Part shown: one piece after another, positions 19,413 to 49,735 of the stretch
Position numbering within the stretch: position 1 is the stretch's first letter
Layout: the number at the start of each line of letters is the position of its first letter
Notes under the pieces: generated by a model
Database searches by the model: none
Told to the model about the DNA's origin: nothing
Seen by the model: the letters and a program-made list of their open reading frames with translations, nothing else
Source: Dehalococcoidia bacterium
GTDB lineage: Bacteria > Chloroflexota > Dehalococcoidia > Lucifugimonadales > UBA3495
Direction of reading: 5' to 3'
Assembly: GCA_965237775.1 (NCBI GenBank)
Contig: OZ250155.1
Span: forward strand, 5,057,419 to 5,121,418
DNA length: 64,000 nt
Program-made: the position numbers and the translations under genes

Positions 19413-19564
19413 CTAAACTAAAGCCAAGGTGAAATGTACATATCGCTGACCGCACTGTCGGTGGCCACCCTTTTGGGGCTTAAGGGTGATATGAGGTGCC
19501 GTGGAGTCCTCTCGGTCGTCTTCAAGACACCCGAAATGCACATCCCACCTTGGTATTGGTTTAG
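19413..19564. mobile_element. IS630-end MITE, core type A (152 bp)
   Basis: CTAAACTAAAGCCAAGGTGAAATGTACAT ... ATGCACATCCCACCTTGGTATTGGTTTAG inverted ends. Confidence 0.88.
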
Positions 19565-19745
19565 GTCGCTTCGGTATTTAACGCCGTCCTCGGTTAGCCC
19601 GTCGCGCCCTCTGGCGCAGTTTGTAATTGGGATGTTGTTTCGCTGACCGCCCCTTGCGTCGGGCCGTGTCTCTTTTCACAGGCTTCGCGACCGGGCGGAG
19701 TGTGGTACAAAAAAGACCCGACAGGGTGTCGGGTCCGGTTGGTGT

Positions 19746-20417
19746 CTAATCGTAGCGGTCCCCGCGGGGGCAGGTGCCGGGGACAAACGCGGAGAGTATC
19801 ATCGGTCCCCTGTACACGGACCGGCCGGCTTTTTCGTTGTAGATTTCGTAGCGCCCCAGGAAGTTTCCCTGGCCGACGTCAGGCTGGTCGTCCAGGTACT
19901 GTTCTATTAACTGCGGGGGAGGATGGGGCCATAGCCTGACGATTTCCATTCTCTCGAGCGAGACCGAAAACCGCAGGAAGCGTACGTTGCCGATGGGCAA
20001 GTGGAACCGGGAGCGCACGTTTCTGCATTTGCGGCCCAGCCGTTTGGGCGCGCCGTTCGTCAGCCAGGGCCCATTGCTTTCAACGGGCTCGTCCCACTCG
20101 ACGTACACGTTGACGGTGCGGACCCCGGGGCTGTCTATCACCTCCGTAATGTCCCAAGCTTGACCAACGTTAATTCGCTCCACTGTTCCAGGCTCCCGCA
20201 CCAGGTCCACGGCAGATGGCTTCTGTGCCTCCGTGATGGGTGGCGGTGACCGGTCCAGATACTTGGGTTGTACGGGATGGAACTCGTCCCACAGGCGCAC
20301 GGCCACCAGCTCCGCAGCCACCAGGGCCAGGAACACCAACAGCAACAGCCGCCATTTCCTGCGGAGGAAACTCCTGTAGGAGGCTGTTGTTTGTTCGTGT
20401 TGCCCAGGCATTGTCAC
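19746..20417 (-). CDS. Membrane-anchored hypothetical protein
   Basis: RRKWRLLLLVFLALVAA N-terminal anchor; 223 aa. Confidence 0.6.
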   Translation of the reverse strand: MTMPGQHEQTTASYRSFLRRKWRLLLLVFLALVAAELVAVRLWDEFHPVQPKYLDRSPPPITEAQKPSAVDLVREPGTVERINVGQAWDITEVIDSPGVRTVNVYVEWDEPVESNGPWLTNGAPKRLGRKCRNVRSRFHLPIGNVRFLRFSVSLERMEIVRLWPHPPPQLIEQYLDDQPDVGQGNFLGRYEIYNEKAGRSVYRGPMILSAFVPGTCPRGDRYD

Positions 20418-20557
20418 TGTTTCGGGAAGGATAGTAGTGAATTGAAAATCGGGGTCTGGAACTTGGTGCTAGGCTCGCGTAAAAGCATGGGAGGCTTTCG
20501 TTCGAAGAGGTACACTGGAGGGCTGCGCCGGAACCGGTGGAGCCCTCGGAACCCTAA

Positions 20558-20670
20558 GTGCGGGGCGACCTGACCATCGACTACGCCCGGCGACTGGTGA
20601 CGGTGGCGGGCTTACCGGTGCAACTCACCGCCACCGAGTATAACCTGCTGGTCGAGCTGTCGGTCCACCT
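20558..20670 (+). pseudogene. OmpR-type response regulator winged-helix fragment
   Basis: GDLTIDYARRLVTVAGLPVQLTATEYNLL is a classical Trans_reg_C start. Confidence 0.7.
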
Positions 20671-20902
20671 CAGCCTACGACCTTTCGTTTCCGGCGGTTT
20701 CCAGTTCTACTGCCCAGGAGTCCCGGAGTTCTTGGTGTTGATTGGATAACGAATAAGCTATATAAGGAAGAGGCAGCCCCAACGAAGGGCTGCCTCCGAT
20801 GAAGGCGGTTCTTGGGGAACCTACGGGCTGCCAGTTCCAGATACGTTCAATTCTACCGCCCAGGAGTACTGAAGTTTTGCGTTGCTATTGTGTCGTCCGT
20901 AT

Positions 20903-20922
20903 GAAGGTTCTTGATTTTGTCC
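20903..20922. repeat. 20-bp direct repeat, second copy at 27042-27061
   Basis: GAAGGTTCTTGATTTTGTCC at both positions, flanking the GLUG gene. Confidence 0.8.
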
Positions 20923-20991
20923 AGTTAGGAGGGGTTGACCTCACTGCATAGGTTGGCATAGGCGGTCATCATGTTCACCATCCGACTAGAT

Positions 20992-23900
20992 TCAGTTACC
21001 GGACCCATCGCCGCCCCGCCGCCGCCGGGCGCGGAGCTTCAACCCGCCTGTCATACCCAGCGGAGCGACCAATAGGAACATACTTATAGCCGCCGCGCCC
21101 ATCGGCGTATCCCCGTCCGGGTAATTGCACGCGCCGCCTGATTCCGGGGCAGGCGTGGGTCCCTGCGCCGCGATTGCGGTCGCCGTTGGCGCGGATGTGC
21201 CGGTGGAACCCACCGGCTCGGTCGTTGATGTCGGCACACGGGTAGGCATTGGTGTTGGCGGCAGTGAAGGCGTTGGCGCGGAGACGTTCGTGGGTTCCGC
21301 CGGTGCTGGCGTTGACGTCGGCACATGGGTAGGCGTTGGTGTTGGCGGCAGGACAGTCGCAGGCGAACCCGGGGGTGGAGGTGGTGTCGGGGGAGTCGCC
21401 AACCAGTTGACGGTTAGCGTGAAGCTGCCGGTCTGCCCGCTATCGTAGGTGGTTACCTCTACGGTGTAGGTCCCGGCGCCCAACGTATGCCCTATCTGGG
21501 CACTTCTTCTGGCGGAGCCGTAGTCTTCAAGGACCTCTCCTGCCCTTCCGGCGCCTTGCAGCAGATAGAGGTAGGTACCGGTGTCGCCGGATTCCAGGTC
21601 AATTATCACCTCCGAGGGTTCGGTCAGGGTGAAGGTGTAGAAGCGAGCATAGCTGCCGTACCGGCTGCCGGACGCGCAGTCGACGGACCAGGTGCCTCTG
21701 ATAACGGGCGTGGCCATGAATTCCACGCAGTTCTCGACCGTTGACGCTGTTACCAGTCTTGGCGCATCTCCACGCTGGTTTCCGAACTCCTGCCAGGTCG
21801 CCGCCCCGTCGCCGTCGAAGTCAACCTTCAGCGCCGGATACTCGCTGCTCGTGCCGAAGTCCCAATAGTCACTGAGAACGTGGTACGGGGTGTTCTCCAA
21901 GCCCTCAATTCCCAGGGAAACATCCCACTCCTGGTATGGGCTGGTGTATCCTTCAGGCGATTGAAGCTCGGCAGTGGTCTTGCCAAATATGTCTGAAGAC
22001 CGCCCCTCACCGATCTCGATCCCGATTCCAACCTGCAGGCCGGAGGTTTCCGTATCCCATAAGCTGGAGTTGATGATGCCAGGGTTGTACCCGACCAGCC
22101 CTCCGATGTAACTATGCGCCGCATCAATGCTACCGTCGCTGGACACTCTGCCAACGGCGTAGCTGTAGACAACTATACTTCCATTGCCACCAGCCAGCCC
22201 CCCAACATAATGGCCTCCGGTGACTTCGCTAGTAGAATAGCTGGCGCTAATTTGCCCATCATCAATATTCCCAATCAGGCCGCCTACATACTTCTGGCCC
22301 TTTACACTGCCGGTGGCGTAGCTGGTGGTCACCCAGCCGCTGTTATCCCCGACCAATCCGCCAACCCTGGTATCGCCGGACACGCTCCCGGTGGCGTAGC
22401 TGGCGATGATCGTGCCGCCGTTGTTGCACCCCGCCAGCCCGCCGAGGTATTTGAAGCCTCCCGAGACGCCGGCGGTGGCATAGCTGGATCTGATTACGCC
22501 AAAGGCATTGCTTCCCACCAGTCCACCGACGCATCCGTAGCCGGAGACGCTGCCGGTGGCGTAGCTGTGGCTGACCGTGCCCCGATTCGCTCCGGCCAGC
22601 GGGCCAACGAAGTCTCCGCCCGCCACACTGGCGTTCAGCAGTCCGGTTTCGCGGATAACACCGGATTCGCCAACGGTGCCGAAAAGGCCGAACCCATGAA
22701 CCGAGGAACCGTCGGCCTGGGATTTGGGGGTGATATGCAGGTTGCTGACAGCGTGTCCGTTGCCGTTGAATGTAGCGGCAAAGGGGCGCCAACCATCGCC
22801 GATGGGCGGCCACCCCTCGCCCGTCGGCCATTCCGCGCTGACCGCGCCGGAGGCGTAGCTGTCGGCGGCGGCGAAGTCCAGCGGGCGAACCAGTTCGTAG
22901 CCCTTGCAGTTGTCGTTGCAGACCGCTCCCGGAAAGGCGGCGGCGTAGGCGTCTGCGCCGGAATCGTCGTCTGCCTTGCCGTCTCCGTCCAGGTCATGGC
23001 GGATGGCGTCCAACTGCTCCAGAAACTCGATTTCAATCAGCCCGTTGCCGTCGCTGTCATACCCGGCGGCCAGGGCCGGAGAGACGGCCCAAGGCGTCAC
23101 CGTGGGAGTAGGTATTTCATGGGCCGCCGGAACCGGCGGCGGAGTGGTTTCTCCTGGTCTGCTGATGGTCAGCGTGAAGCTGCCGGACTGTCCGGCTTCG
23201 TAGGTGGTGGCCTCGATAGTATAGGTCCCGGCGGCAAACCCATCCTCTATCCTGGAGTATCTGTCCGGGGAGCCCTGACTCCTGAAAGACCTGCCTGTTG
23301 TTCCCGCCCCTTTCTGCATGTACAGATACGTGTTGGTATCGTCGGACTCCAGGGTGATGAACACCTCTGAGTCAGCATTTAGGGTGAGAACGAAGAAGCG
23401 GGCATAGCTGCCGGGGCGGTTGAAAGAGAGGCAAGCGCTGCTCCATGCTCCGGAGACAACGCCGTCGGGCGCGACCGTTTCCAGGCATCTGTCCTCTGCC
23501 GGTGGCGTAGCATGGGGCGCTGGCTCAACAGTTGGCGCCGTCCGGACCTGGCCGCCGAACTCCTGCCAGGTTGCCGTACCGTCACCGTCGAAGTCAAACT
23601 TCAGGGCCGGATACTCGCTGTTCGTGCCAAAGTCCCAGAAGTCATCCGACCCGGTCGCCGGGTCGTCATCCCCGTCGGCGTTATCTAGGTCGGCCTTCCA
23701 ACCGGCAAACATACCGGTATAGATGGTAGGCGCTTGCAACTCGGCAGTGGTCTTGCCCTCCCCGCCGGCCGAGGTTTCCTGGCCGGTGGTCTGCGTATCC
23801 CAGAAGCTGGCTGATTCCCGGATGGTCCCGCTTTCGGCCCCTATCAGACCGCCGGCCTCAACATCGCCCGACACGCTGCCGGTGGCGTAGCTGGCGACGA

Positions 23901-26685: not shown

Positions 26686-27067
26686 TCCGCAGGCTCATCT
26701 CTTCCGGCCTTGAGCCGGGATCGGGAAGGGTTGAGAGCAGGCCAAGTTTCTGCTCGCGAGGATTGTTGGATTCCGGCTTTCGCCAGCAGGGTGGTGAAGA
26801 CCCCGACACCGCCCGTCAACAGTGAACAGTCACGGCCCTGTATTGTCAACCGTCGGTAATCGTGGAATCCATCACAACGGAAAAGCCCGGAAAAAGGCCG
26901 AGGCCTTCGCCCGGTGCGGAAGGGGCCGCCGGTTCATTCTTTCCGAGGGGCCACTGAACCTGACCTTTACGGCGAGACCCCGAAGCGCCGAATAGGACAA
27001 ACCACGGGGAATCCTTACACTTCCAAAGCGAACCTGATCACGAAGGTTCTTGATTTTGTCCGGTTTG

Positions 27068-27630: not shown

Positions 27631-27983
27631 TCGTGCTCCGGGCTGTGCAAGACTGCCCTTCCGCCGCGGCTGAATTTTGCACGGTTTCGGTGCTGTGGGT
27701 CCTGGACGGCCGCCCCCGGGAGATTGCCGCAGCCGCTCCGTCGTTCCATCTGGACAGTGTACTCCCGGAGGAGCAGGCGTCCTCGGCGTTGACAATCTGG
27801 TTGAAGGCCCCGATGTCCACCATCCAGTCCTGGCGCGGCGCCACGGGGCTCTGCGACGGAGTATCTCTTGGGTGGTCAGCTTCGCGGTGTCTGGTTATGA
27901 TCGGGAGGCACGGTGCCGGGGTGAGGGTGATCGGCTTGGAGGACGGGGACGTATCTCGGGGTTGTTGAAGGGGAGTCAGCGCG

Positions 27984-33375: not shown

Positions 33376-33771
33376 TGGGAATCACCTTCCTCTTTGCAGG
33401 TTGATTCCTCATTGTGGACTCCTGAATGAGGGCCGCGGTTTAGCGTTTCCGAGTTGCTCATCGCCCGTCCGGGCGGTTGGTCCAGTTTAATGTCCTTGTC
33501 TTATGCTGCCATTCCCGGAGCGTGAACCCCGAGTCTCCGTTCTCCCGGTTTATCCGTTCCGTCGGTTCTTGGTGACGCGTCGGTGTTGTCTCATCACAGC
33601 CGGAACTCTCCGTCGGTGGGAGTTAACGGAGGATTGGCGGAGGATTGCTGACGTGGGGCTTCTGTGGCGCGGTGTACCAGCATCAGGGCTCGGCTTGGTA
33701 TCAGCTGCATCCCCAGAAGGAGGTGTTTCCAACTTGAGGGAGTAGGAGCCCCTTCCGGCATCCGGGGTATA

Positions 33772-33924
33772 CTAAACCAAAGCCAAAGTGGGATGTGCAT
33801 ATGGAGGGGGGTCAAGTGGCGGTGCCGGTCCGCCCTTCAGGTATATTTGGAAGAGCTTCACTGTGGCGCCTAAGCCAATCTTCATCGCCCCACAAATGTA
33901 GATCCCACCTTGGCTTTAGTTTAG
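33772..33924. mobile_element. IS630-end MITE, core type B (153 bp)
   Basis: CTAAACCAAAGCCAAAGTGGGATGTGCAT ... ATGTAGATCCCACCTTGGCTTTAGTTTAG. Confidence 0.88.
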
Positions 33925-34703
33925 GCGACCACGGTGGACGGCCACGGAAATGTGTGCCGTTCGTCGTAATATGTCGTCTTGAGATACTTCAAGTCATCAA
34001 CCCAATGGCCGACCGCTTCCCGATAACTATCTTTGCCCAAATTGAGTAGAATGTTGAGATTGATCCGTTCAGCTATTTTATAGAGGCGCGTCCCGGATTC
34101 CGGCCGTCCCCACTCGGCCACATAATTCGCGTCCGACATTTCGGGCAATTCCTCAACAAATGCCTTATGCAGCGCGCTTCGGCGTTTCGAACAGTCTCGG
34201 CCTTTTGCTCCAGCAGTGTAACCCATTATTTTGAGAAAACTTTCTTCTTTCCACTCCCCCGTTGCGGTGATACCAGGGCTGCTGAAGGTAGGAACCAACC
34301 TTGTGGTAGGCCAGTCAAATCCCCACTCTTTTATATGCTCTAAGGCAGGGTGACCCTCACCAAAAATCTCAGCCACGCGGGGAGATTCGAGCGGATCGTT
34401 GCCTCCAGCAATATATGCTAGAAACATCTCCTGAGAGTAAACGCGAAGCTCTTTACCCCGTCTAGCTTCGATAACGCCGTTCAAGTGTTCTTCTTCCCAA
34501 TCTTCCCGTCCAATCACCAGGATGTTCAAGTCGAACGACGGTGACAAAGCCTCGATCCCCAATTCCGCAAGGAAAGAATCGTACTCATATTCATCGAATG
34601 GACAGGACCCAGTAGTAGATACTCCATTCGGAAACATGCCGGTAGGGTCTATTCCATCGAAAAACCAAGCGCGTAATTCTGGATGTTGGAACGGACTAAC
34701 CAT
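33921..34703 (-). CDS. Hypothetical protein, lower GC, MITE-flanked
   Basis: 260-aa clean ORF whose stop codon lies in the MITE end. Confidence 0.75.
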   Translation of the reverse strand: MVSPFQHPELRAWFFDGIDPTGMFPNGVSTTGSCPFDEYEYDSFLAELGIEALSPSFDLNILVIGREDWEEEHLNGVIEARRGKELRVYSQEMFLAYIAGGNDPLESPRVAEIFGEGHPALEHIKEWGFDWPTTRLVPTFSSPGITATGEWKEESFLKIMGYTAGAKGRDCSKRRSALHKAFVEELPEMSDANYVAEWGRPESGTRLYKIAERINLNILLNLGKDSYREAVGHWVDDLKYLKTTYYDERHTFPWPSTVVA

Positions 34704-34783
34704 CCCTAAGCCCTCATCCGCCTGAGGCAGACTAAATTCTTGTGACCGTCTACGCTCTGCCCCTGGTTAGGATATCCGTCCTT

Positions 34784-34935
34784 CTAAACTAAGGCCAAGG
34801 TGAAATGTACATATCGCCAGACCACACTGGCGGTGGCCACCCAGTTGGACCTTAAAGGTGATATGAGGTGCTGTGGAGTCTTTTGGTCGTCTTCAAGACC
34901 CCAGAAATGCACATCCCACCTCGGTATTGGTTTAG
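34784..34935. mobile_element. IS630-end MITE, core type A (152 bp)
   Basis: Same ends and core as 19413-19564. Confidence 0.88.
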
Positions 34936-35027
34936 GGTACTGGAGCCTACAAACCTTGTCAGACTAAAAGGGGGACGGGGCAACAGGGTAGCCACGGTGC
35001 CCCGCACGGGACGGACGGGCCACCTTC

Positions 35028-35894
35028 CTACCTAAGCCTTTCTCCGGGTCTGAAGCTGCCGTCTAGCCACTCGACGAAGTTGCCAGCATGAAGGAGGTAC
35101 GTCCGCTTGGTGCTCGCTGTCAGGCCCGAGGTTTCGACCTCCCCGCAGTACCGTGCGAAGGCTCGTCGCACCCCGGCTATGGTCTTCGGAGGAAGCGCAC
35201 GTTTCCGATGTAACGGCCCTTTTGCCCGATCTTCCCGTTGGTCAGTCGCACCGGCGGTTTGCCTCATCTGCTCCTCAATATCTGGAGACCAGAGGTTTCC
35301 CTGCTCCGATCGTTCCTTATTGCGGTACTTCTCTATCCACCGGGCGTCAATTGGTGGCAAATTCGGACGGCGCTCGTAGACCAGCATCTCCTTTACGCTT
35401 AGTAGTTGCATCACCGGGTAAGCCCTGGTCCCGCCGTCTGCATCGTGTAGGTCGACCGTCCCGAGGCCGGTGGCGAACTGCGTCCATTTGCTGGAGGAGG
35501 GATACAGAGTGATCAGGACAGACATCGGGACACGCCCTTTCCGTTTGTCCTCCCTGGTCTGGACGCCCAACAATTCGTCCAGAACGGCTCTACTGACTCC
35601 GGCTTGGTGCATCTTCGCTTGGATTGGGACCATGACGCCACCGACGCCATAGTAACGTGCGTCAATCCCGCCGTCGCCGCCTTTCTTGCCGTTTGGGACA
35701 GCGTCCAACAGGTCAGCTATGTAATCTTCCGCCCAAGCCCAACCGGGTTCTCCGGTGCCTGCCGCTCGTTCTGTTTTGATAGCCTCCCGTTCGAATGCCT
35801 TCCATGCGCGGTCATCGTATTCCTCCAACGCGTCTAACAAGGGGTTCTCCATGGACTTTGCCTCCAAGCGGACCTGTACTCGTTTGAGCATCAC
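35028..35894 (-). CDS. Mrr-like PD-(D/E)XK restriction-endonuclease-domain protein
   Basis: AFEREA...GGDGGIDA...PIQAKM matches the Mrr_cat D-x-G-I-D...Q-x-K signature. Confidence 0.65.
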   Translation of the reverse strand: MMLKRVQVRLEAKSMENPLLDALEEYDDRAWKAFEREAIKTERAAGTGEPGWAWAEDYIADLLDAVPNGKKGGDGGIDARYYGVGGVMVPIQAKMHQAGVSRAVLDELLGVQTREDKRKGRVPMSVLITLYPSSSKWTQFATGLGTVDLHDADGGTRAYPVMQLLSVKEMLVYERRPNLPPIDARWIEKYRNKERSEQGNLWSPDIEEQMRQTAGATDQREDRAKGPLHRKRALPPKTIAGVRRAFARYCGEVETSGLTASTKRTYLLHAGNFVEWLDGSFRPGERLR

Positions 35895-36003
35895 GATGGC
35901 ATCCTATCCAACCGCTTCAAGATGTGATGGAAAGGAAGAGAGTCCCTGCTACCCTGCCCCTGCGGCACACCGGAGTGTGCCTATGGGGATCACCGGGACG
36001 CCA

Positions 36004-36155
36004 CTAAACCAATACCAAGGTGGGATGTGCACTTCGGGGTCTTGAGGACAACCGAAAGGACTCCACAGCTCCTCATATCACCTTTGGGCCCCAATTGGGT
36101 CGCCACTGACAGTGCGGTCCGGTGATATGTACATTTCACCTTGGCTTTAGTTTAG
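36004..36155. mobile_element. IS630-end MITE, core type A in reverse orientation (152 bp)
   Basis: Closely similar to the reverse complement of 19413-19564 and 34784-34935. Confidence 0.88.
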
Positions 36156-36334
36156 TTGTGGCAGCCCCGGGCTTGGATGTCCCAGACGGCCTCGACCTTC
36201 CCGTTGCGGATACCGATGAAGCGGTCCAAACGGCTTACGGTGGCGTCCTGCTGGGACGGGATTAAGGTCACCTGGTCTCCTACTTCCAGGGTTGCGCCCT
36301 CGTCTACGCGGAAGACAACGTGGTCCGGGTCCAT
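36152..36334 (-). pseudogene. C-terminal fragment of a DSD1/D-threonine-aldolase-like PLP enzyme
   Basis: LEVGDQVTLIP...DATV...VEAVWDIQARG tail. Confidence 0.6.
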
Positions 36335-38635: not shown

Positions 38636-39388
38636 TCAAGGCCCACGCCGACGCCGAAGTTCTTCCTCCAGTTCCCGAACCCGCGCTTCGGCTTGCATGC
38701 GGGCTTCCCGCTCAGTTTCTGCCTGGGTCTCCGCTGCTTCAGCTCGGTTCTCTGCGGCGATCCGGGCCTCGGCGGTCTGGTCCTGAGTCTCCAGGTAGCG
38801 TTCCGTCGCCGGGTCCCACCAGCGCAGGTGCCCGTACTCCCAGCAGATGCTCAGCCCCAGTACCTCGCTGCGTCCCCAGAGCAAGCCCGGGTGGATTTCC
38901 TCAATGGCCATGGGCCGGTAGGTCCCGTCTCGAAGGCTGTCCCCGGCCAGGCTCTGCCGATGGAAGTGGCCGCCGGAGGGGTCGAAGCGCCAGTATTCCT
39001 GTACCCCGTAGTCTTGGTACCCCTCCCGCTTCCGCTCCTCGTCCTGGCGCCCGGTGCTGGGCGATGCTATCTCCAGCACGAACTCCGGCGCCTTGCCCTG
39101 TTCCAGGGTGGAGTAGCCCCGAAAGGCGATGACGGCGGCCACGTTCACTTCGAAGGCAATCATCACGTCGGGGATCAGGATGCCCTCCCGCTGGCGGTGA
39201 TGCCGCCCCAGGGGCGTTTCGGCCAGGACCAGTGTGGTGTCCAGGGAACCGAAGTGCCGGCGCAGGGTGGCCAGGTAGCCGGGGACGTAGAGGTAGATGG
39301 GGTTGTTCATATCGTCTCGGTGGGGGAAGTCCGGGAAATGGCCGTCAGGCTTCATAGCCCGTGCCTGCTGTATCTGCTTGGTGGTCAT
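38636..39388 (-). CDS. Uma2 (DUF820) family endonuclease-fold protein
   Basis: PDVMIAF, APEFVLEIASPST..D...KR..Y...GVQEYWRFDP, C-terminal coiled coil; likely start MTTKQ at 39388. Confidence 0.9.
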   Translation of the reverse strand: MTTKQIQQARAMKPDGHFPDFPHRDDMNNPIYLYVPGYLATLRRHFGSLDTTLVLAETPLGRHHRQREGILIPDVMIAFEVNVAAVIAFRGYSTLEQGKAPEFVLEIASPSTGRQDEERKREGYQDYGVQEYWRFDPSGGHFHRQSLAGDSLRDGTYRPMAIEEIHPGLLWGRSEVLGLSICWEYGHLRWWDPATERYLETQDQTAEARIAAENRAEAAETQAETEREARMQAEARVRELEEELRRRRGP

Positions 39389-39476
39389 GGCGTTCCTCGT
39401 TGAGGGAGCGGGGCGGATTTCCTGGTTATTATACGGGATTTTGACTCGTGGGAAGGAGGAGTCCATGTCCCGTGCC

Positions 39477-39957: not shown

Positions 39958-40575
39958 CTATGGGCAATAGTTCTTGCTAATCTCAGCATTGAATTCTGCA
40001 GGGTCGTACCAGTAGCACCCAACGCAAGTCCCTCTGTATTGGCTGTCTCCTACTGTCCATCCTACTGAGTAATGAAGTTCCCTTGCATCAAATCGTGTTT
40101 TCGAAGATTGGCAACGGTCACAGTGTGTTCGTTTCGCTCCGTTGACAGCTTTTGTCATGGGCTGATAATCCGATGGTTCGAGCCGCCTGGGGATGTCTTT
40201 GCGCCCGTCTTTGTGGTCTGCTTCGAGGTTGGCGCTTGTGCCGAGCACCACGCAGCGTTGGTTGCTGGTTACTGCCTTCCGTAGCCAATCAGGGGTTTGT
40301 GTGTTAATTGGCCGGTCGTTGAATCCCATCAGCTGAATTGAACTGATGCTGCCTTTGGAACCATCTCTGGTACGTCCGATGATGTATTTTCTGCCCAGTG
40401 GCCCGTCGCTCCTGCACCATGAGCCTCCATTGCCGAAGTTGTTCAGTTTCGCGTACTCGCCTATGAATTCTTCACGTCTCACTACTCTGGACACGCCTCT
40501 ATGGTCAGGCTCTGCTATTTCTTCAAATAATCCTGCTAAGCCTTGTAGTTTTCTCGCTCTTGGGTCAAGCGTCAT
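39958..40575 (-). CDS. NlaIII/IceA1-like HNH restriction endonuclease
   Basis: LF.E.A.PD..GVSR, GNGGSWCR, DHKDGRKD, N..KR..C..C...RFDA and CVGCYWYDP are recalled hallmarks of NlaIII/IceA1. Confidence 0.8.
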   Translation of the reverse strand: MTLDPRARKLQGLAGLFEEIAEPDHRGVSRVVRREEFIGEYAKLNNFGNGGSWCRSDGPLGRKYIIGRTRDGSKGSISSIQLMGFNDRPINTQTPDWLRKAVTSNQRCVVLGTSANLEADHKDGRKDIPRRLEPSDYQPMTKAVNGAKRTHCDRCQSSKTRFDARELHYSVGWTVGDSQYRGTCVGCYWYDPAEFNAEISKNYCP

Positions 40576-41423
40576 TCGCTGACCTCTTTGACTCGGCCCT
40601 TTGCTACTTCGACGTACTGGGGGTCAATGTCTCCTCCGATGAACTTTCGGTTATTGCTCACAGCTGCGACTGCGGTTGTTCCGGATCCCAGGAATGGGTC
40701 TACTATGATGTTGTTGGGATTAGAATGGATTCGTACTAATTCGTTGAATAGCTGGAGCGGTTTCTGTGTGGGGTGGAGCCTTTTGCCCCCATCTCTTGGT
40801 ATCGGCATCCGGAACACCCCTGAGTGGTACTTTTCGTTGAATGTTGGGTTGCTCCCTTTTACTCCGAGTAGAGCAATTTCCCTGCTGTTTGTCAGGTAAT
40901 TGACGCGCTGATTCAGGGGTACGGGGTTGCTTTTTTCCCATACGATGAGTCTCCGTTGCTTGAAACCTGCTTCTAGCATTGCTTGGGATAGGTACGACAG
41001 TTTCCACAGGTCGTACCAGATGATTGCAGTGCCGCCTTTCCTTAGGCAGGAGTAAACCAGTCTGGCTAGTTGTGGGAGGTCTATCATCGACTTGTCCCAT
41101 TCCCCGAAGTCCATGTTGACCCTGAGCCGTTTTACCCCACGAGTTCCGCAGTTTTTGAATCCAGTATTTTTACTTATTGTGTAAGGTGGGTCTGTTAGTA
41201 CGAGGTCAATATTCCCTGACTCTAGGCGAGCTAGCAAGTCAGTGTAGTCCTCGACTGTTATCTGAGGTTCTTTCCCTGGTTTGGTTAGGTCAGGCTCGTT
41301 CGGATCAGTGTTGGTTCGCGTACCGGTGGCGACCAGGTCCACCGTCTCCGAGTTCGTCCCCCGGAGGACGTCGAGGTTGTCCATGTTGTACAGGACGTTA
41401 TCTGAGAAGTTCTGCCCGGCCAC
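40572..41423 (-). CDS. N4/N6 DNA methyltransferase (beta order); the first ~33 aa come from a different MTase gene
   Basis: TDPPY, HPTQKP, DPFLGSGTT. The N-terminal DNLDVLRG.NSETVDL.AT stops just before its own DPP motif, with a GC shift near 41325. Confidence 0.88.
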   Translation of the reverse strand: MAGQNFSDNVLYNMDNLDVLRGTNSETVDLVATGTRTNTDPNEPDLTKPGKEPQITVEDYTDLLARLESGNIDLVLTDPPYTISKNTGFKNCGTRGVKRLRVNMDFGEWDKSMIDLPQLARLVYSCLRKGGTAIIWYDLWKLSYLSQAMLEAGFKQRRLIVWEKSNPVPLNQRVNYLTNSREIALLGVKGSNPTFNEKYHSGVFRMPIPRDGGKRLHPTQKPLQLFNELVRIHSNPNNIIVDPFLGSGTTAVAAVSNNRKFIGGDIDPQYVEVAKGRVKEVSE

Positions 41424-41493: not shown

Positions 41494-42579
41494 TGAACCA
41501 AGGCCAGGGAGAAATGTGCGGGGGATAGAGTAATTTGGGGAGGGATTGGGTTAGCCTGCGTTGGGGTTGGAGATGGGTGCGAGAGAGATAGAGCGGTTCC
41601 TCAAACAGTGGCAGATGGATGCAACGGATTTGCGCAGGCGGTTGCTTCTGGCCCGACACCCCGGGAGCGGGAAAGGTGGCACGTCCTCTGGCTCTTGGAC
41701 TAGGGTTGGACCGCCTCGGCGGTGTCCGGGGCACTGGACCGGGACCCCCACACCATCGGCCGGTGGGCCGCCGCCTTCGGCGAAGGTGGTTCGAGGGCTC
41801 TGATTTTCGAGCAGTCCGGAGGTTCCCCACCTTCGCCGGGGCGCAGTAGGCCACACTGAAAGGGTCGGCGCAGGAGTTGCCTGCGGCAGTTGGCATTGAA
41901 CTGGCCAACTGGAAGGTGGGGCGGTAGTTTGTCTCCCAGAGCTTCGGCATCAGCCTGAGCTGCGGCGGTCCGGGACCAAGATTCTCTTCGCTGAGGAGGC
42001 GCACTTCCGGGCGGACGCCGAACTGCGGGGCAAGTGGGTGCTGAAGGGAGAGTCGGCCCTGGTGGATTCGACCAGCCCGTGCGTGGCGGGAAGGCCAGCC
42101 GCTACTCGGCGGTGTGCCTGGAGACAGGAGAGGTGGGATGGATGGAACTGAAGGGGAACAGCAACGCTGAAACCTCCACCGCTTTCCTGAATCAACTGCG
42201 CAGGAAGCACCCCGGATCGTTGGCCGTGATCTGGGACAATGCCTCAGCGCGCCGTCGCGAGGCGGTGCGGGAGTGCCTGAGGACGTCCGGCCGGGGCCTG
42301 CGGCTGATGAATCTGCCGGGCTACAGTCCGGACTTCAATGCCGATGAGACGATCTGGGGCTGAGTGAGGGAGGAGGCGACCGGGAACCTGTGCCTGGGGA
42401 CCAAGTCTCGGGTGCAAGAGAGGGTGGGGAACTTCTTCGCCGCGCTGGCTGGACGGAAAGAAGAGGTCAAACACCGCTGCCGGATCGTCCTGCAATCGTG
42501 GGCTGAAAGAATACTGCGAGACTCCCAGCCCCATCGCCAACCCCAGGCAAATGCACATCCCACCTTGGCTTTGGTTTAG
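41494..42579 (+). mobile_element. IS630-family IS, transposase pseudogene
   Basis: EAHFRADA, VIWDNA and LPGYSPDFNADE.IW motifs; right end ATGCACATCCCACCTTGGCTTTGGTTTAG matches the MITE ends. Confidence 0.88.
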
Positions 42580-42805
42580 TAGACTTCTCCATCCACTGGA
42601 TGCCGCTTTACCCACGTATTCATCTTACGCATCGGCAGAGAGGTCGTTGACATGTAGAGGTTTCATACCATCCCGTTGTGGTTTCACCGGGGCGCGAAAA
42701 ACCTTGAAGTTGCCACCTTCTTCGAGAGAGCTTGTCGGGCTGTGTATAATCCAACCCATACACAAGGTGAGAAATCTTTGGCCTCGTGGCAGACGGGCGG
42801 TTTCC

Positions 42806-44557
42806 ATGAAGTTAATGGTCAGAACCTTGAACTTTCCCATTAAAAGAATCCTATTTGTGGTGGCCATTCCGGTCGCCCTCGCAGCCTTTTACTTGGGGTT
42901 ACCCCCATTAGGATGCGCGGCATTAGTTGGAGGCATGGTTTGTATTCTGCCGTGGGCCTTCATGCGGAGCCTCTACTGGAAGGCGTCACGTCGCTTGCAA
43001 GAGGCCAGGCCCTACTACAAGCGGGGTGACGCCAACCGCTATAAAAGGGAGTATGACCGGGCGATAGTTGAGTACAGCACTGCTATTGGCATTGACCGAG
43101 ACAATTTGCGAGCCTACTGCGCCAGGGGATCCGTCTATATGCTGAAAGGCGAATATGACCTAGCGATCGCCGATTTCGACACTGCCATCAACATTGACCC
43201 CATCCTTCGCGGCCTCGCCTACCGCGAATTTATGGGCCGTGATGCTGGGGAATACGACTTGGCAAATGCCTACAACGACCGAGGCTACGCCTATCATGCC
43301 AAAGGGGAATACGACTTGGCGATTGCTGATTTCGACGCCGCCATTCGCATTAACCATCCCGGTTTTGATAAGGCCGGGACTTACAACAACCGTGGTCTCG
43401 CGTACCATGCCAAAGAGGAATACGACCTGGCGGTTGCCGATTTCAACGCCGCCATCGGCTTGGGCTCCCGCGAGGCGGAGTACTACAACAACCGGGGCCT
43501 CGCCTACTTGGCCAAAGGTGAGTATGACCTTGCAATCGCCGACTTCGACACCGTTATTAGCATTGACCCCAACGGTGTTTTCATGTTGGAGGCCTATGAC
43601 GGCCGACGCAAGGCCTACGAAGCAAAAGGGGATTATAAGTTGGCAGCCAGCGAATTCGAAGCTGGCAACCGCATTATTTGGCGGGACGCCGAAGATGCGG
43701 AGGGAGATGGCGAAGCCGACGAAGCGATAATTTACTACGAGAAGGCCAGCTACTATTACAGTAAGGAAGAGTATGATTTGGCGATTGCGGAATACGACAC
43801 AGCCATTGGCATTGACCCCGACGATGAGGCTGGCTACAACAACCGTGGCCTCGTCTACCTCGCCAAATGTGAGTATGACTTGGCGATTGCCGATTTCGAC
43901 ACCGCCATTGCCATTAACCCCGACATTTGGGTGGCCTACGAGAGCCGGGATATAGCCTACATAGCCAAAGGGGATTCTAACCCGGAAGTGATAGAGGCCT
44001 ATACGAGACGAGGGCTGGCCTACATCACCACAGGGGAGCATGACATGGCTATCGAAGATTTCAACACCGCCATTCGCATTGACCCCGGCCACGTACAGGC
44101 CTATGTCAGCCGGGGCCTCGCCTACTACGCTCAAGGGGAGCATGACTTGGCGATTACCGACTTCGAAGCCGCTGTTAGCACCGATCCCGGGTACGCCCAG
44201 GCCTATATCATCCGTGGCCTCGTCTACATAACCAAGGGGGAGCATGATCTAGCGATCGCCGATTTTGACACTGGCATTGGAATTGACCCCAGCGATGCGG
44301 AGGCTTACAACGACCGAGGCCAAGCCTACAAAGCCAAAGAGAAGTATGACTTGGCTATTGCCGATTACACAGCCGCCATTAGCATCGACTCTAATTTTGC
44401 AGGAGCATACCACAACCGGAGTTTCGCCTACCTCGCCAAAGGAGAGTCCAGCTTGGCGATGGCCGACCACTATGCCGCCATTGCCATCGATCCTAATTTT
44501 GCGGAAGAAGACTATGTCCGGCTGGATATCCCCTACCCGGCTGGAGGACAAGGATGA
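42806..44557 (+). CDS. Membrane-anchored TPR repeat protein
   Basis: Two N-terminal TM helices, then more than 12 repeats of AY.NRG.AY..KGEYDLAIADFD.AI.IDP. The longer ORF start at 42551 lies inside the IS end. Confidence 0.92.
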   Translation: MKLMVRTLNFPIKRILFVVAIPVALAAFYLGLPPLGCAALVGGMVCILPWAFMRSLYWKASRRLQEARPYYKRGDANRYKREYDRAIVEYSTAIGIDRDNLRAYCARGSVYMLKGEYDLAIADFDTAINIDPILRGLAYREFMGRDAGEYDLANAYNDRGYAYHAKGEYDLAIADFDAAIRINHPGFDKAGTYNNRGLAYHAKEEYDLAVADFNAAIGLGSREAEYYNNRGLAYLAKGEYDLAIADFDTVISIDPNGVFMLEAYDGRRKAYEAKGDYKLAASEFEAGNRIIWRDAEDAEGDGEADEAIIYYEKASYYYSKEEYDLAIAEYDTAIGIDPDDEAGYNNRGLVYLAKCEYDLAIADFDTAIAINPDIWVAYESRDIAYIAKGDSNPEVIEAYTRRGLAYITTGEHDMAIEDFNTAIRIDPGHVQAYVSRGLAYYAQGEHDLAITDFEAAVSTDPGYAQAYIIRGLVYITKGEHDLAIADFDTGIGIDPSDAEAYNDRGQAYKAKEKYDLAIADYTAAISIDSNFAGAYHNRSFAYLAKGESSLAMADHYAAIAIDPNFAEEDYVRLDIPYPAGGQG

Positions 44558-44623
44558 GTTCGCGACCGCCCATTTCGAAACTGCCAAACTCATTACCTGA
44601 AATGGCTCCAATTAGCAGGTCCT

Positions 44624-45121
44624 ATGGAACCTTTTAAACTCCGGCCGTGGAAAATAAGCATTTCGCCAGGCTGCGACGCCCGGTTTTACACATGTGCCCG
44701 GCCAGGCAGGTCCAAAGGGCCAGATGGCGCTGTGCCAGACGACGTCGTTTCCTCTTGGGTCAAAGGGTTGCCTGGTCCCGATACGGCAATTATATCGCTG
44801 TTGGGTCGCAAATCAGACAAAAACGGCCTTTGTGAATACTCCTTCTACTCATTCTGTGGAGCATGGGACCGCCCCGAAGAACCCGGACGTCGACCGTATT
44901 TCCAAGAGTGGCTTGATCAAAATCATAAAGAACTCAAAATTTTGGTACGTGAACGTCCGACCTACGACAACCGCCCAATTCCCTCCGACACGATTAAGGC
45001 CATAGCCACTGACGTACATGAGCTTAATAGAGAGGGCCGGACAGTAGTTGTGATGGACTCTGGCGGCGTGGGTCGTACAGGGGACGTAGTTGCGTATCTC
45101 AGGGCTACACAGGACACTTAG
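44624..45121 (+). CDS. Dual-specificity/tyrosine-phosphatase-fold protein with Asp in place of the catalytic Cys
   Basis: ARPG, IISLLG, P.YD and VVVMDSGGVGRTG, compared with the canonical VVHCxxGxGRTG. Confidence 0.6.
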   Translation: MEPFKLRPWKISISPGCDARFYTCARPGRSKGPDGAVPDDVVSSWVKGLPGPDTAIISLLGRKSDKNGLCEYSFYSFCGAWDRPEEPGRRPYFQEWLDQNHKELKILVRERPTYDNRPIPSDTIKAIATDVHELNREGRTVVVMDSGGVGRTGDVVAYLRATQDT

Positions 45122-46021
45122 CCCGAATCCACCGAAGGAGGGCGTCGGGTCAGCTACCTGAAGCGGCTGGAAGGTGCTCCTGTGCATCTGGGATGATGGT
45201 TTGAAACAGCATACCGGCCCCGAAGCAGGAGCACCCAATAGATGCTGCCACGCAACCACCCCGACCGCATCCAAATCGCCTTCGACGACCACCGCCTGGT
45301 GGCCAACGCCGGCCTGCTCCTTCCAGCCACCTTGGCCCTGCACCTCGGCCTTTCCCAATTGGTACAGCAGCGCCTGGACCTGGGCGATGCGCCGGGCCGG
45401 GCCAACCCCGGCGACAAGATAATGACGCTGGTCGCTTCCGCGCTGGCTGGCGGCGACTGCATCGACGACGCCGATGCGTTGCGCGCTGGCGGGGTGGCCT
45501 GCGCTCTCGGCAGCGTAGTCAAGGCGCCATCCACCCTGGGCACTTTCCTGCGCAGCTTTCGCTGGGGCCACGTCCGCCAACTGGACCGGGTGAGCCGCGA
45601 GTTGCTGGCACGGGCATGGCAGGCCGGAGCCGGACCCGGCGACGCGCCATTTACCATCGACCTCGATTCCACCATCTGCGCGACCTACGGGTTGGCAAAG
45701 GAGGGAGCGCGCCATCATGGTTACACCCGCCAGCGGGGCTATCACCCGCTGCTGGCCGTGGCCGCTGGCACCGGCGACGTGCTGATGGCCCGGCTGCGGG
45801 GGGGAACTATCCCGCCCACTAAATTGAAGATGAACATCCTTTGCCTCGGCGTGTTAGCGTGCGCTCTCGTGGCCTGCTCAACGTCGGGACCAACAACGAC
45901 GCCTATCCGCGCCCTGCAGGAGCCCGTCCCCGAGGCGATGGAAGACATGGTCGGGGAGTGGGTGCGGGAGCACGCTCCGGAGATAGCGGAAGCCCTCCTC
46001 CGGGAGGTAGACAAACACGAC

Positions 46022-46162
46022 CTAAACTAAAGCCAAGGTGAAATGTGCATTTCCGGAATCTGCAGCGACTCGGCAGACCTTCCTCCAATTGCAGGACATA
46101 GATACTACCGGGATACTTGAGTCCCATTTCCCTGTACCCCCCAATATAGATTCCACCTTGGC
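46022..46162. mobile_element. IS630-end MITE, core type C, inner TIR truncated
   Basis: Left end CTAAACTAAAGCCAAGGTGAAATGTGCAT; right end stops after ATATAGATTCCACCTTGGC. Confidence 0.8.
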
Positions 46163-46409
46163 GTTACAATATTATGGACCGGGAGGAGCAGCGGAGACCG
46201 TCTGAGACTGAAGGAGACCAGGACTAGGTCTGCTTCACCCTCATCACCATATCCACCAGGTGCCAATGGTATCCGCGCCGGTTTAACGGGCGGACTGGAC
46301 AGTCCCATCCGCCGCGTAATAGCAGAGCGGGGACCGTAAGTAAACCGCATCTAGCCCGTTTCCGGGGACCTGGAGTTCGTGGGCTCCCAATCTTCATTCC
46401 GAGGAGAAC

Positions 46410-48008
46410 ATGACTCATACGGAGAATGCGACAATGCGGATGCTGAAATGGTTCGCCCCTATCTTTGCCGCCGGAACGTTGACCGTATTCGCCGCTTGCG
46501 CGTCCGCCTCCACCAGCGAACCTGCGCTCGAACCCACGGCGACGCCTGCGGACGATTCGCCGCAGGCGCCGTCCGTTTCAACTGTCATTGGCACGCCCGT
46601 ACCTCGTTCTGATGTCGGGACGGTTTTCGACAGACCCTTGTCCTCCGGTCTGTCCGTTGCCGACGTGACGGAGAACGCGCTGCCCAGCGTGGTCCAAATC
46701 ATCGCGGGTTCCGGCTCCGGGACGGGTTTCATCATCAACGAGAACGGGCTGACGGTCACCAACAGGCACGTAGTCGAAGGGAATAACCGGGTTGCCGTCC
46801 GGCTGGCGACAGGGGAGGAATACCGGGGCAGCGTGACCGAACGGCATCCAAACCTCGATTTGGCCTACGTCGAGATTGACGCCAACCGGCGTTTCACCCC
46901 CATAGCTATTGGCAACTCCGACAAAATCCGCGTTGGCGACGACGTTATCGCCATCGGTTTCCCCTTGGGCCGGTCACTGGGGCTGGAGCCTACGGTCAGC
47001 GTCGGAATCATCTCGGCCAAGCGGAATAACCGCCTGCAAACGGACGCATCCCTGAATCCGGGAAACAGCGGCGGGCCGCTGCTGGATATGTTCGGCCAGG
47101 TCGCCGGAGTGGTTGTCTCCAGGGTGGAAACCAACAAAGCCGGAAGGCCCGTCACCGGCATCGGCTTCGCCATTCCCATCAACGCGGTGAAGTCGGGGCT
47201 TGGGGGGCAGGTTTCCCGGGCCGGCAGGGCGCTGCCCACGCCCACCCTGACGCCCTTCCCGGCGATAGCCCTGCCCCCAAACGTCGAGGCCACCAAGGCT
47301 GCGATGGACGCCATAGACGCCCACCGGCGGCAGGTGGAGCAGGCCACCCGCACGGCCATCGAAGCACAGCAGGAAGCCGAGCGCTACGCCGCCTCCCTGG
47401 AAGCCACCCGCATCGCCGAACTGCCCACACCGACGCCAACGCCGCTGCCGACGGCCACCCCGACGCCGACACCTACGCCCTTGCCCACGGCCACGCCGAC
47501 TCCAACGCCCACGCCAACACCGGAACCCACGCCGACCCCACTACCCACGCCCACACCGCATCCACGCACGTTCTGCCAGGAATGGGAAGCCCTGGCGCTT
47601 GATTGGATAAAGCAGGGCAATAACTATTACAATTCGAATTATCCTCAATCACGTGGAGTGTCCTCAGTTGTACCTGACCACTCCCAGTTGTCTGCTAAGG
47701 AAGCGCACTCGTTGTGTCTTACTGCATTATTCCCGCTCGGCATCATAGAAAATAGAGGTAGTTCGAGCGTCGGAGATGGGCAAGGCCAGCTTCTGCCGGG
47801 CACTTATGAGTACCGGAGGGAGGGAGATAAGCGTGTGCCGGGGAGATGCCAGATCAATCTCAACTGGAACGAGGATAACCAGCAATCCGTAAAGATGCCC
47901 CACGGTGAGCCATTCACTTTCCGGTTCTATCAGTATCATGGGAAGGTTAGCTATGGGGCGGAATACAGGGACCGTTGCGACGGTGCCCTCTACCGCATTG
48001 GGGACTGA
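46410..48008 (+). CDS. Lipoprotein trypsin-like (S1C/HtrA-type, no PDZ) serine protease with PT linker
   Basis: FAAC lipobox; [28 protein letters not shown]; Pro-Thr repeats at about 47420-47560. Confidence 0.9.
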
Positions 48009-48078
48009 TTTGCCTCTAAAGTCGGAATCGTGGCAAGGGAAGGTTTGATACTTCCCTCAATAACAGAGAGATAGATGT

Positions 48079-48291
48079 ATGACGTACAGGGAAATTCAAC
48101 GCAGTGCAGCTCAAAAACTGGGCGTCCAACCATCTTCAGTGAAGACCTGCTGGATAGCGGAGGTAAAGCGCGAGTTTGGGCTTACACAAGGGAGGGCGCC
48201 AAAAGCCGGCCAAGGCCGAGGCGCCCCACCATGCCCGCCTCGTTATCGTGATGCGATTACACAGTGCATCCGTGCCCGCTCTTTAAAATAG
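48079..48291 (+). CDS. Small basic hypothetical protein
   Basis: TYREIQ...KTCWIAEVKREFGL...PCPP...AI; resembles a small domain seen at some RlmD C-termini (recalled, unverified). Confidence 0.6.
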   Translation: MTYREIQRSAAQKLGVQPSSVKTCWIAEVKREFGLTQGRAPKAGQGRGAPPCPPRYRDAITQCIRARSLK

Positions 48292-48299
48292 ACGTTACC

Positions 48300-48395
48300 G
48301 TTGGGCATAAGGGAGATGAAGCGGTTCCTCGAACAGTTGCAATTGGATGCGGGCGATGTAAGGAGGCGGATTCATCTGGCTCCTACACCGCTTGG
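48300..48395 (+). pseudogene. IS630 transposase N-terminal fragment
   Basis: Similar to 41575-41660 (RE..RFL.Q.Q.DA.D.RRR..LA). Confidence 0.55.
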
Positions 48396-48552
48396 GCTTT
48401 GTCCTGAAGCGGCCCAGGAAACGGTTGGCTTGGCCGGTTCAGCGACTTGGAGCGCGTAGGGCGGTCCGGACTGTTAAGCTCCAATCATGTTGATGAAACG
48501 TATGCCCCGGACTTCCTGGAGACTCTCAGACGACTGGTAGACCGGATGAGGT

Positions 48553-49236
48553 ATGAGGATTGTGAACGACAGCCCGATAGTTGTCATCCAATGCGCCGGC
48601 AGCAAGCAGAGCCATGCCGGTTGCCTTGGCCTTCGCAGCAGTGGGGAAGTGCTGTTCGTCTCCGACCCGGATAAAGCTCCCCAAGACGAATATACCTATG
48701 CTCATCCCGACGGCCAAGCGGACATTGGGGAGACGTGGCGGGAGAAGTTGTGGCGATACAATAAACGGCATAAGGACGCTCCAGGAGACAACCCTTTGGG
48801 GCTGCTGCCCGCCTGGCAGCTTTACAGGCATCCGATCTATGCCCGACTGGCGGAAAAGTACGGGCCGGAGCACCTCTACATCCTGTCGGCTGGCTGGGGC
48901 CTGATTAGGGCAGGTTTTCTGACGCCGGACTATGACATTACCTTCAGCAACAATGCAGAACCCTACAATCGCAGGCGCGAACGGGATGCTTACGACGATT
49001 GGCGTATGCTGCCTGACGACACTGCCGAGCCGGTCGTATTCTTCGGCGGCAAAAGCTATATAAAGCTGTTTTGTGCATTGACCGAACGGGTGAAAGGGCC
49101 GAGGCACGTATTCTTTAATTCACGGAATGCGCCGGATGCACCAGGTTGCCATCTCCGAAAGTTCGACACCAGAACCAGAACCAACTGGCACTATGAATGC
49201 GCCCGAGCATTTATGGACGGGAAGGTCAAGATTTAG
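48553..49236 (+). CDS. DUF6884/YaaA-like hypothetical protein
   Basis: VIQCAGSK, PAWQLY and ILSAGWGLI...YD.TF pattern. Confidence 0.6.
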   Translation: MRIVNDSPIVVIQCAGSKQSHAGCLGLRSSGEVLFVSDPDKAPQDEYTYAHPDGQADIGETWREKLWRYNKRHKDAPGDNPLGLLPAWQLYRHPIYARLAEKYGPEHLYILSAGWGLIRAGFLTPDYDITFSNNAEPYNRRRERDAYDDWRMLPDDTAEPVVFFGGKSYIKLFCALTERVKGPRHVFFNSRNAPDAPGCHLRKFDTRTRTNWHYECARAFMDGKVKI

Positions 49237-49244
49237 AAACAATG

Positions 49245-49460
49245 TCAAAATAGTAACCGGTGCTGACGACGATACCAGAGATGGGAGTACGCCAAGTGGA
49301 TCAGCCCCTTGTAGTTGGATACCTCTTTGTCATAGCGGACCAGGGTCGCCCGGTGCTTGGACAGCCAGGCCAACGTGCGTTCCACCACCCAGCGACGGGC
49401 CGGAAAGATGAGGTGAAGCGGCGCTGCCGGACCGTCCTGCAATCAAAGCCGAAGGGCCAG
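49245..49460. pseudogene. IS5-family C-terminal fragment (minus) joined to an IS630 C-terminal fragment (plus)
   Basis: RRWVVERTLAWL...LVRYDK on the minus strand; RKDEVKRRCRTVLQS on the plus strand matches 42455-42500. Confidence 0.7.
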
Positions 49461-49584
49461 TAGTCCGAAAACTCCGAAATGATGAGTAACCGAGTTGGAT
49501 ATGACTTGCCGAAACACCTTGGCTGGTGGTCTTCACGGGTCAAAAACCAGCCCATTCACCCATCAATACAAAGGCGTTGGTCTA

Positions 49585-49735
49585 CTAAACCAAAGCCAAG
49601 GTGAAATACGCATATGGAGAAAGTCATCGGCGGCGCCGGACCACCTCCAAGTGCAGGTGGAAGAGCTTCACCGTGCGCGCCTGAGCCAATCTTCATCGCC
49701 CCGCAAATGTAGATTCCACCTTGGCTTTAGTTTAG
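49585..49735. mobile_element. IS630-end MITE, core type B (151 bp)
   Basis: Same ends; core shares GGAAGAGCTTCAC and GCCAATCTTCATCGCCCC with 33772-33924. Confidence 0.88.

Follow-up and report, generated by a model that had tools for sequence, protein, structure and literature searches.

Miniature elements of about 152 bp with IS630-type ends, and the composite transposons they form, in the genome of an uncultured Dehalococcoidia bacterium

The stretch of DNA considered here (hereafter the window: 64,000 nucleotides (nt), positions 5,057,419 to 5,121,418 of contig OZ250155.1, assembly GCA_965237775.1, from a Dehalococcoidia bacterium) lies within a single 5.12-Mb contig of 60.5% G+C and contains six elements of about 152 bp whose inverted ends are those of insertion sequences (ISs) of the IS630 type. 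Very probably, these miniature transposable elements with inverted repeats (MITEs) form one superfamily that is mobilised by an IS630-type element, with two of the core types present in the window (B and C) derived from such an element by deletion, and with two pairs of MITEs acting as the arms of composite transposons. According to this explanation, a resident IS630-family transposase would move the MITEs in trans by cut-and-paste, recognising their inverted ends of ~30 nt and inserting them at the TA of a CTAG, which would leave the TA duplicated. Types B, C, D and E would go back to one founder deletion, followed by substitutions and a few 1-nt insertions or deletions (indels) that would have kept them at 150-154 bp, and type A would have the same ends and the same size around a core with no detectable relative. 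When two elements lie close to each other, the transposase would use the outer ends and move everything in between, and such joint insertion has happened twice in the window.

The set provides a worked mobile-element example for uncultured Dehalococcoidia, in which the genetics of mobile elements is almost a blank, and covers an autonomous IS, MITEs derived from it by deletion, an orphan-core MITE with activity in several genera, and two composites together with their empty sites. It also shows how small gene modules, in this case a restriction-endonuclease-like gene and a peptidase module, are shuffled without plasmids or phages. Whether the size of 152 bp reflects a constraint on synapsis would, if true, be of wider interest.

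Shared ends, target site and movement

Read directly, the six elements are as they were first described from the letters alone, and the inverted ends that they share are far from what chance would give: a 19-mer pattern of the end, allowed three mismatches at most, matches the window 12 times, where shuffles would give 0.02. These matches make up five complete pairs (152, 153, 152, 152 and 151 bp), together with the left end at 46022 and a single end at 42561-42579. The element at 46022 is recognisable on its right side up to 46162, without its last 10 nt, and would be 151 bp long if complete. The attribution of the ends to IS630, made in the same preliminary description, is likewise borne out, in that a decayed IS630-type copy (72-79% identical to the 1242-bp element of this genome that is described below) has its right end at 42579 and in that the MITE ends match IS ends at 86-96% identity over 22-35 nt.

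Extended to the whole genome, the pattern gives 130 end matches, with 55 adjacent pairs in +/- orientation and 20 solo ends. The elements read CTA/AAC...GTT/TAG, and 52 of the 55 pairs are bounded by CTA...TAG, a proportion that the search pattern itself favours, so that the real test lies in the empty sites. Six of these were found, one in the relative G005, two paralogous ones in this genome (for B copies) and three in the relatives G005 and G002, and each of them is a single CTAG, from which it follows that the TA is duplicated upon insertion, within CTAG as had been assumed, and that the C and G on the outside are part of the target. For the solo B element at 33772, no clean orthologous empty site exists in G005, where the shared gene has unrelated sequence upstream of it. 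CTAG is rare in the genome, with 5537 sites where base composition predicts 18301, and the positions just outside it are also biased, towards T/A and then A/C.

Movement is recorded by five pairs of 100% identical copies (two of A and three of B) at sites with unrelated flanks, which indicates that both the A and the B types have moved recently; among the elements of the window, 19413-19564 has such a copy at genome position 2497219. Being 150-154 bp long, devoid of coding capacity, provided with the ends of a resident IS, flanked by a target duplication and demonstrably moved, the elements are MITEs. What is left of a transposase frame in them is interrupted by stops in all 12 A copies and in 17 of the 19 B copies, the other two B copies being open over only ~50 codons. 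Read inward, the element ends also carry stops in all three frames (TAA at 2-4, TAA at 7-9 and TGA at 18-20), and two open reading frames (ORFs) of the window, 33921-34703 on the minus strand and 45242-46030, terminate within element ends.

The autonomous IS630-type partner

Across the genome, 24 long elements (1236-2269 bp) have the same ends, and they belong to several diverged lineages to all of which the ends of ~30 nt are common. The compact copies measure 1236-1273 bp; five 1242-bp copies retain an open frame of 399 codons, spanning element positions 43-1242, and one 1236-bp copy retains a frame of 397 codons. The products of the 1242-bp and 1251-bp elements match the Pfam domains DDE_3 (2.1e-21 and 7.5e-25) and HTH_33 (5.1e-13 and 2e-12), which identifies them as IS630-type elements. 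All the traits of the IS630 family were found together, that is, a transposase with DDE and helix-turn-helix domains, TA duplication in CTAG, a length of ~1.1-1.3 kb, one gene and inverted repeats. Judging from the shared ends and from the copies with open frames, it would be the transposase of the 1242-bp element that mobilises the MITEs in trans. Not every copy is open, and 1265-bp variants (e.g., G000:C1:3313390-3314654) correspond to the 1242-bp element with an insert of 23 nt at position 974 that breaks the frame. The large indels of full-length IS copies are mostly insertions of other small mobile repeats.

In every lineage, the transposase frame crosses the right inverted repeat, which encodes the last nine residues of the protein, and ends in ...PTLALV with the stop codon at the last three bases. 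That stop, TAG, consists of the duplicated TA and the G of the target, the element proper being without a stop codon. Since the stop is supplied by the CTAG target, the target preference also guarantees termination.

IS630 itself reportedly prefers CTAG (Tenzen et al. in 1990, and Tenzen and Ohtsubo in 1991, are said to have described it), and an IS630-associated composite transposon was reportedly part of the 1991 work. The elements of this genome resemble IS630 of Shigella sonnei and the wider IS630/Tc1/mariner family, including ISY100 of Synechocystis, in their single DDE transposase with an N-terminal helix-turn-helix, in their terminal inverted repeats of ~30 nt and in the duplication of TA, here always in CTAG. 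Unlike IS630 and ISY100, they form a separate lineage from uncultured Dehalococcoidia, with a transposase frame that has no internal stop and passes through the right inverted repeat, and with several diverged sub-lineages that have common ends. For ISY100, the transposase alone and 30 bp from each end are sufficient (PMC2170065).

Core types and their origin

The 31 complete copies of this genome fall into two core clusters, A (12) and B (19), without chimeras. Over positions 38-152, the B consensus can be aligned (72%, E 6e-13) with the final 118 nt of the 1251-bp element, and when cores were compared with the right sub-termini of the ISs against shuffles, both B (z 3.7-12.5) and C (z 5.4-6.8) stood out. 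C is, moreover, 69.8% identical to two B copies over 149 nt. The idea that the cores A, B and C cannot be aligned to each other is thus valid for A, which aligns to nothing, and fails for C. Similarly, an alignment of all three cores to the sub-terminal sequence of an IS, which had been named as the observation that would speak against anything other than deletion, was obtained for B and C and not for A.

The same relationship can be read in the coding frame. Translated so that the frame closes on the terminal TAG, B gives ...VKRRCRSVLQ...PTLALV and a stop, to be compared with the C-terminus of the transposase, ...KDEVKRRCRTVLQ...PTLALV and a stop. Two further types, D and E, of 152 bp each, occur as divergent elements in one relative and also read like the C-terminus of the transposase, D giving ...KNEVLRRRRPVL... 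in that same frame. Types B, C, D and E are all colinear with the tail of the IS, which joins the left end at about nt 31-33. They are therefore internal-deletion derivatives, composed of ~32 nt of the left end and the last ~120 nt of the IS (~40 C-terminal codons), contrary to the initial view of a unit that is not a simple deletion derivative. One shared breakpoint accounts for their equal length, and, as far as can be judged from sequence, they most likely arose from one founder deletion. The B subfamilies have core identities of 54-90% among themselves, 57-66% to the tail of the 1251-bp element and 43-57% to other tails.

Type A is widespread: a search of 41 genomes found it in 18, spread over many genera of a single family, at 82-92% identity. 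Its right end is of the GCACAT type, as in other IS lineages; that of most B copies, of C, D and E and of the 1251-bp element is of the GTAGAT type. A parent IS for A was looked for among seven partial A hits in relatives, all of which turned out to be truncated MITEs, starting at varied points, and none of which lies in a full-length element. A third, internal end in A was also considered, as AAGGTGATATG at positions 66-83 resembles a left end; it was rejected with a weight-matrix scan (p 0.5 against shuffles), and the truncated A copies do not start there. With regard to functions of the cores as such, the suggestion of folded cores or RNAs came to nothing: there is no Rfam match on the elements in loci L001 and L020 (E up to 1), the folding of the cores is no better than that of shuffled sequences (z -1.0 and 0.0) and the fold of the alignment is mainly an end-to-end stem. 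The suggested search for phage counterparts gave no match to a 23-mer end among viral contigs.

Two composite transposons

Composite transposon 1 (Table 1) is laid out as CTA, A(+), cargo, A(-), TAG, and its empty site, ...CCGTCCTTCTAGCTATGG..., is found in the relative G005 (locus L021). Furthermore, in sequencing runs X8 and X17, from two other studies, contigs join 34784 to 36153 and skip 1368 nt, and in one of these two runs the depth is ~2 over the cargo and 67-91 over the flank; X17 is an RNA run, and an RNA library can contain DNA, with contigs giving neither strand nor ends. The cargo ORF of 288 residues is weakly Mrr-like (the Mrr_cat match reaches 20.7 bits against a cut-off of 21) and has only three homologues in a large protein collection, one of which carries PF04471. 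It has no match in PADLOC or NCBIfam and no second copy in the genome.

For composite transposon 2, the empty site, ...gacaaacacgacCTAGgtgccaagttg..., is found at three loci (L026, L027 and L028) of G005 and G002, whose flanks are the window sequence before 46022 and after 49735. As these flanks are uninterrupted in the relatives, the 3714 bp between them are one insertion. Its arms are of two types, C and B. Both units thus have intact outer ends, a single flanking TA duplication and a site that is also found empty. Of the earlier idea that the elements are carriers of short sequences, what stands is that pairs of elements carry genes; the cores themselves carry nothing.

Three other partial copies of the cargo module (46163-49584) exist in the genome, 87-94% identical, and one of them (L024) abuts a remnant of ~60 nt of an IS630-type right end. 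Because another copy (L025) is preceded by CTAG, it may be supposed that C inserted beside the module and that a subsequent 12-nt deletion between GGC repeats removed its inner end, which would have tied C to the cargo.

The IS that composite 2 interrupts, with a DDE_Tnp_1_4 transposase, is present roughly 50 times in the genome and divides into at least two sub-families, and the window copy (45117-45804 and 50073-50881) is the one split. Beside the A element at 19413, the right flank is unrelated to this IS, so that a rearrangement ends at the element.

Table 1. Features of the window, by position, and an example copy of the 1242-bp element elsewhere in the genome
Feature	Coordinates	Strand	Remarks
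Decayed DDE_Tnp_1_4 IS fragment, 171 nt	19242-19412		Flanks the A element at 19413
Type A MITE, solo, 152 bp	19413-19564	+	At CTAG of the decayed DDE_Tnp_1_4 IS fragment
Type B MITE, solo, 153 bp	33772-33924	+	Left inverted repeat joined to the final ~120 nt of an IS630-type element
Composite transposon 1, 1372 bp with the two CTA/TAG half-sites counted	34784-36155	.	One insertion in CTAG, TA duplicated
Type A MITE, left arm of composite 1, 152 bp	34784-34935	+	
Cargo ORF, 288 aa, weakly Mrr-like restriction-endonuclease fold	35028-35894	-	Pfam Mrr_cat E 4.7e-4
Type A MITE, right arm of composite 1, 152 bp	36004-36155	-	Inverted relative to left arm
Decayed IS630-type element	about 41496-42579	+	Deleted internally; left end not recognisable; right end at 42579
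DDE_Tnp_1_4 transposase, N-terminal half	45242-46030	+	Split by composite 2; frame stops inside MITE end
Composite transposon 2, 3714 bp	46022-49735	.	In CTAG of DDE_Tnp_1_4 transposase gene, TA duplicated
Type C MITE, left arm of composite 2	46022-46162	+	Tail-derived, divergent; last 10 nt of inner (right) end missing
Cargo: trypsin-like serine peptidase, 532 aa	46410-48008	+	Pfam Trypsin_2 1.6e-31
Cargo: 227-aa ORF, weak DUF6884 match	48553-49236	+	Pfam 5.6e-6, 27 bits against cut-off 30
Type B MITE, right arm of composite 2, 151 bp	49585-49735	+	
DDE_Tnp_1_4 transposase, C-terminal half	49995-50978	+	Same split gene
1242-bp element, example copy	G000:C1:128587-129828		

Length class and alternative explanations

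The narrow length class noticed in the window extends to the whole genome and to its relatives, with no broad distribution. The 31 short pairs of this genome measure 150 bp (three), 151 bp (ten), 152 bp (ten), 153 bp (seven) and 154 bp (one), and none of the 55 pairs lies between 155 and 1235 bp. In a scan of 26 genomes that allowed a gap of 40-400 nt between the ends, 11 had matches (the reversed control pattern had none), and the 75 elements of relatives among the matches listed measure 145 bp (one), 150 bp (one), 151 bp (seven), 152 bp (43), 153 bp (21), 155 bp (one) and 179 bp (one); 35 further elements, 24 of them from this genome, lie beyond those 75. A sample of public genomes, with at least 80 loci and partly overlapping the set of relatives, contains at least 39 paired elements, of 142 bp (one), 151 bp (seven), 152 bp (19), 153 bp (ten), 159 bp (one) and 179 bp (one). 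Within families, the copies differ from their consensus by 11-24 substitutions and by a mean of 0.5-1.4 nt of indels, nearly all of them of 1 nt, and the gaps between copies average 1.0-1.24 nt. A compensation of insertions by deletions was considered and discarded, the raw correlation (r 0.85 in A and 0.53 in B) being due to two outliers per family (a misassigned divergent element, a 142-bp copy, a 159-bp copy and a shifted alignment); with these dropped, r is 0.12 for A (36 of 38 kept) and 0.07 for B (34 of 36). With so few and uncompensated 1-nt indels, the selection on length that had been proposed is not needed within families, and it is between A and the tail-derived class that it might still apply. 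The size common to both may be due to chance, with two classes only, to homology that has faded, or to a real constraint.

It is unlikely that length itself is selected, that is, that efficient synapsis or excision is limited to units whose duplicated TAs lie ~146 bp apart and that independent founders, A as against the tail-derived class and perhaps also B as against D, converged on 150-154 bp and remain there. Equally improbable is the more explicit form of this proposal, in which the IS630-type transposase would be a physical ruler of ~146 bp, unrelated founders would converge across genera and longer units would move as rarer composites. Apart from the empty interval above 154 bp in this genome, such selection would fit with the equal length of two core classes without detectable homology, with the 72 of the 75 listed elements of relatives that measure 150-153 bp, with tail-derived types that go down to 34-56% core identity and all measure 151-152 bp, and with the case of D, which has three extra nt at the junction and three fewer further in, with the same total. 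Full-length IS copies of this genome also have larger indels, with mean gaps of 13-59 nt, but these are mostly inserted small mobile repeats and hence a poor neutral yardstick. Against it, other IS630-linked MITEs have other sizes, such as RUP with ~107 bp. Copies of 142, 145, 155, 159 and 179 bp with both ends intact exist, the spread is explained by uncompensated 1-nt indels, and a spread of 5 nt is about half a helical turn, which makes strict helical phasing impossible. The classes that are independent number only two, so that their equal length may be chance, and the mini-transposons of ISY100 need only 30 bp per end (PMC2170065).

Somewhat less doubtful, and nevertheless rather unlikely, is that A shares its founder with B, C, D and E, its core having since become unrecognisable and its length having been kept by descent. 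The cores of B and C are not alike in pairwise comparison (z 0.6) in spite of their common match to the IS tail, which means that homology within the superfamily can fade below detection. A and B are similar over 45 nt beside the right end, and a gapless, in-register profile that includes this sub-terminal part gives a faint signal (0.323 against a background of 0.253 +/- 0.025). However, the signal is gone in the central core (0.313 against a range of 0.21-0.32), and a search (nhmmer) with a profile of the IS, B, C and D cores retrieves none of the 12 A cores, with nine of 600 shuffles scoring at most 3.3 bits. In addition, the similarity of A copies across genera (82-95%) does not suggest a very old, fast-drifting lineage, and the A right end differs from that of most B copies and of C, D and E.

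Highly improbable, in turn, is the portable frame suggested by the preliminary description, with fixed ends between which cores are captured or exchanged. It could draw on core A, to which nothing in the ISs of this genome is related, and on the fact that the same CTAG is occupied in two copies of the DDE_Tnp_1_4 IS, by A at 19413 and by the C-ended composite at 46022, with the first 25 nt of the end identical in both. These two hits on one CTAG are explained by the strong target preference, given the 5537 sites and their biased flanks. That B, C, D and E run colinear with the tail of the IS itself largely refutes the frame for B and C, the clean separation of all 31 complete copies leaves no exchanged core in this genome, and a genome-wide BLAST with A, B and C as queries finds element copies only and no donor locus for any core. 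The public-genome sample adds no new core class either: among the 39 matches listed, 37 fit A (15), B (21) or E (one), and the other two are, by eye, reversed members of the B subfamilies. Nor do the cores by themselves fold better than shuffled sequences.

Several points weigh against the favoured explanation, that of a single superfamily mobilised by an IS630-type element. On neither strand does core A resemble a sub-terminus, left or right, of any IS lineage of this genome, and the founder model does not explain its equal length. D is 55% identical to the tail of the 1251-bp element, 52-56% to other tails and 44-49% to B, that is, equally far from all tails and farther from B, so that these figures do not amount to a demonstration of a single founder for B and D, for which repeated deletions at one point are conceivable. 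It is the shared ends only that would point to the 1242-bp element as the source of mobilisation in trans. Finally, the detection needs two recognisable ends, which favours intact copies.

Relation to known elements and neighbouring genes

Like RUP of Streptococcus pneumoniae, Correia elements of Neisseria and Nezha of cyanobacteria, the elements are short, non-coding and present in many copies, share their ends with an autonomous element, duplicate TA and carry stops in three frames of the end. Unlike them, the present family has its own ends and two deep core classes of equal size, and its tail-derived class retains C-terminal coding sequence of the transposase. No description of this family was found in the literature on MITEs or IS630 in Chloroflexi or sponge symbionts.

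Composites flanked by miniature elements are known from resistance plasmids, with examples such as the pair of 439-bp MITEs around the blaPER-1 integron in Acinetobacter (PMC3934969), the TIME-COMPs of Tn3-derived miniature elements (PMC13367494) and the integron mobilization units. They reportedly have in common with the present units that two miniature elements bracket a cargo, with one target duplication and a site that exists without the unit. The differences are that the arms here are IS630-type MITEs of 152 bp in an environmental Dehalococcoidia host, that the cargo is not antibiotic resistance but an Mrr-like gene in one unit and a peptidase module in the other, and that one unit has arms of two types (C and B), one of them without its inner end.

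Outside this group of genomes, a 10.7-kb contig titled Candidatus Tectimicrobiota (L041) contains a 152-bp B-type element, 70% identical to the B core consensus, which could reflect transfer between bacteria of a common habitat or an error in binning. In the window, a gene for a Uma2-type nuclease lies at 38636-39466, and, beside the decayed IS630-type copy, a gene for an IceA-like endonuclease (ICEA 9.4e-38) overlaps one for an N6/N4 DNA methylase (2.5e-33) at 39958-41423, which looks like a restriction-modification pair. In runs X1, X2, X8 and X17, metagenome contigs pile up on 33744-33965, 34743-34964 and 35964-36185 (1889-3081 records per DNA run), and the element families seem to be very abundant in those communities, summed contig depth not being a copy number. 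Among the contigs that match the locus, some come from a run with the label sponge metagenome.

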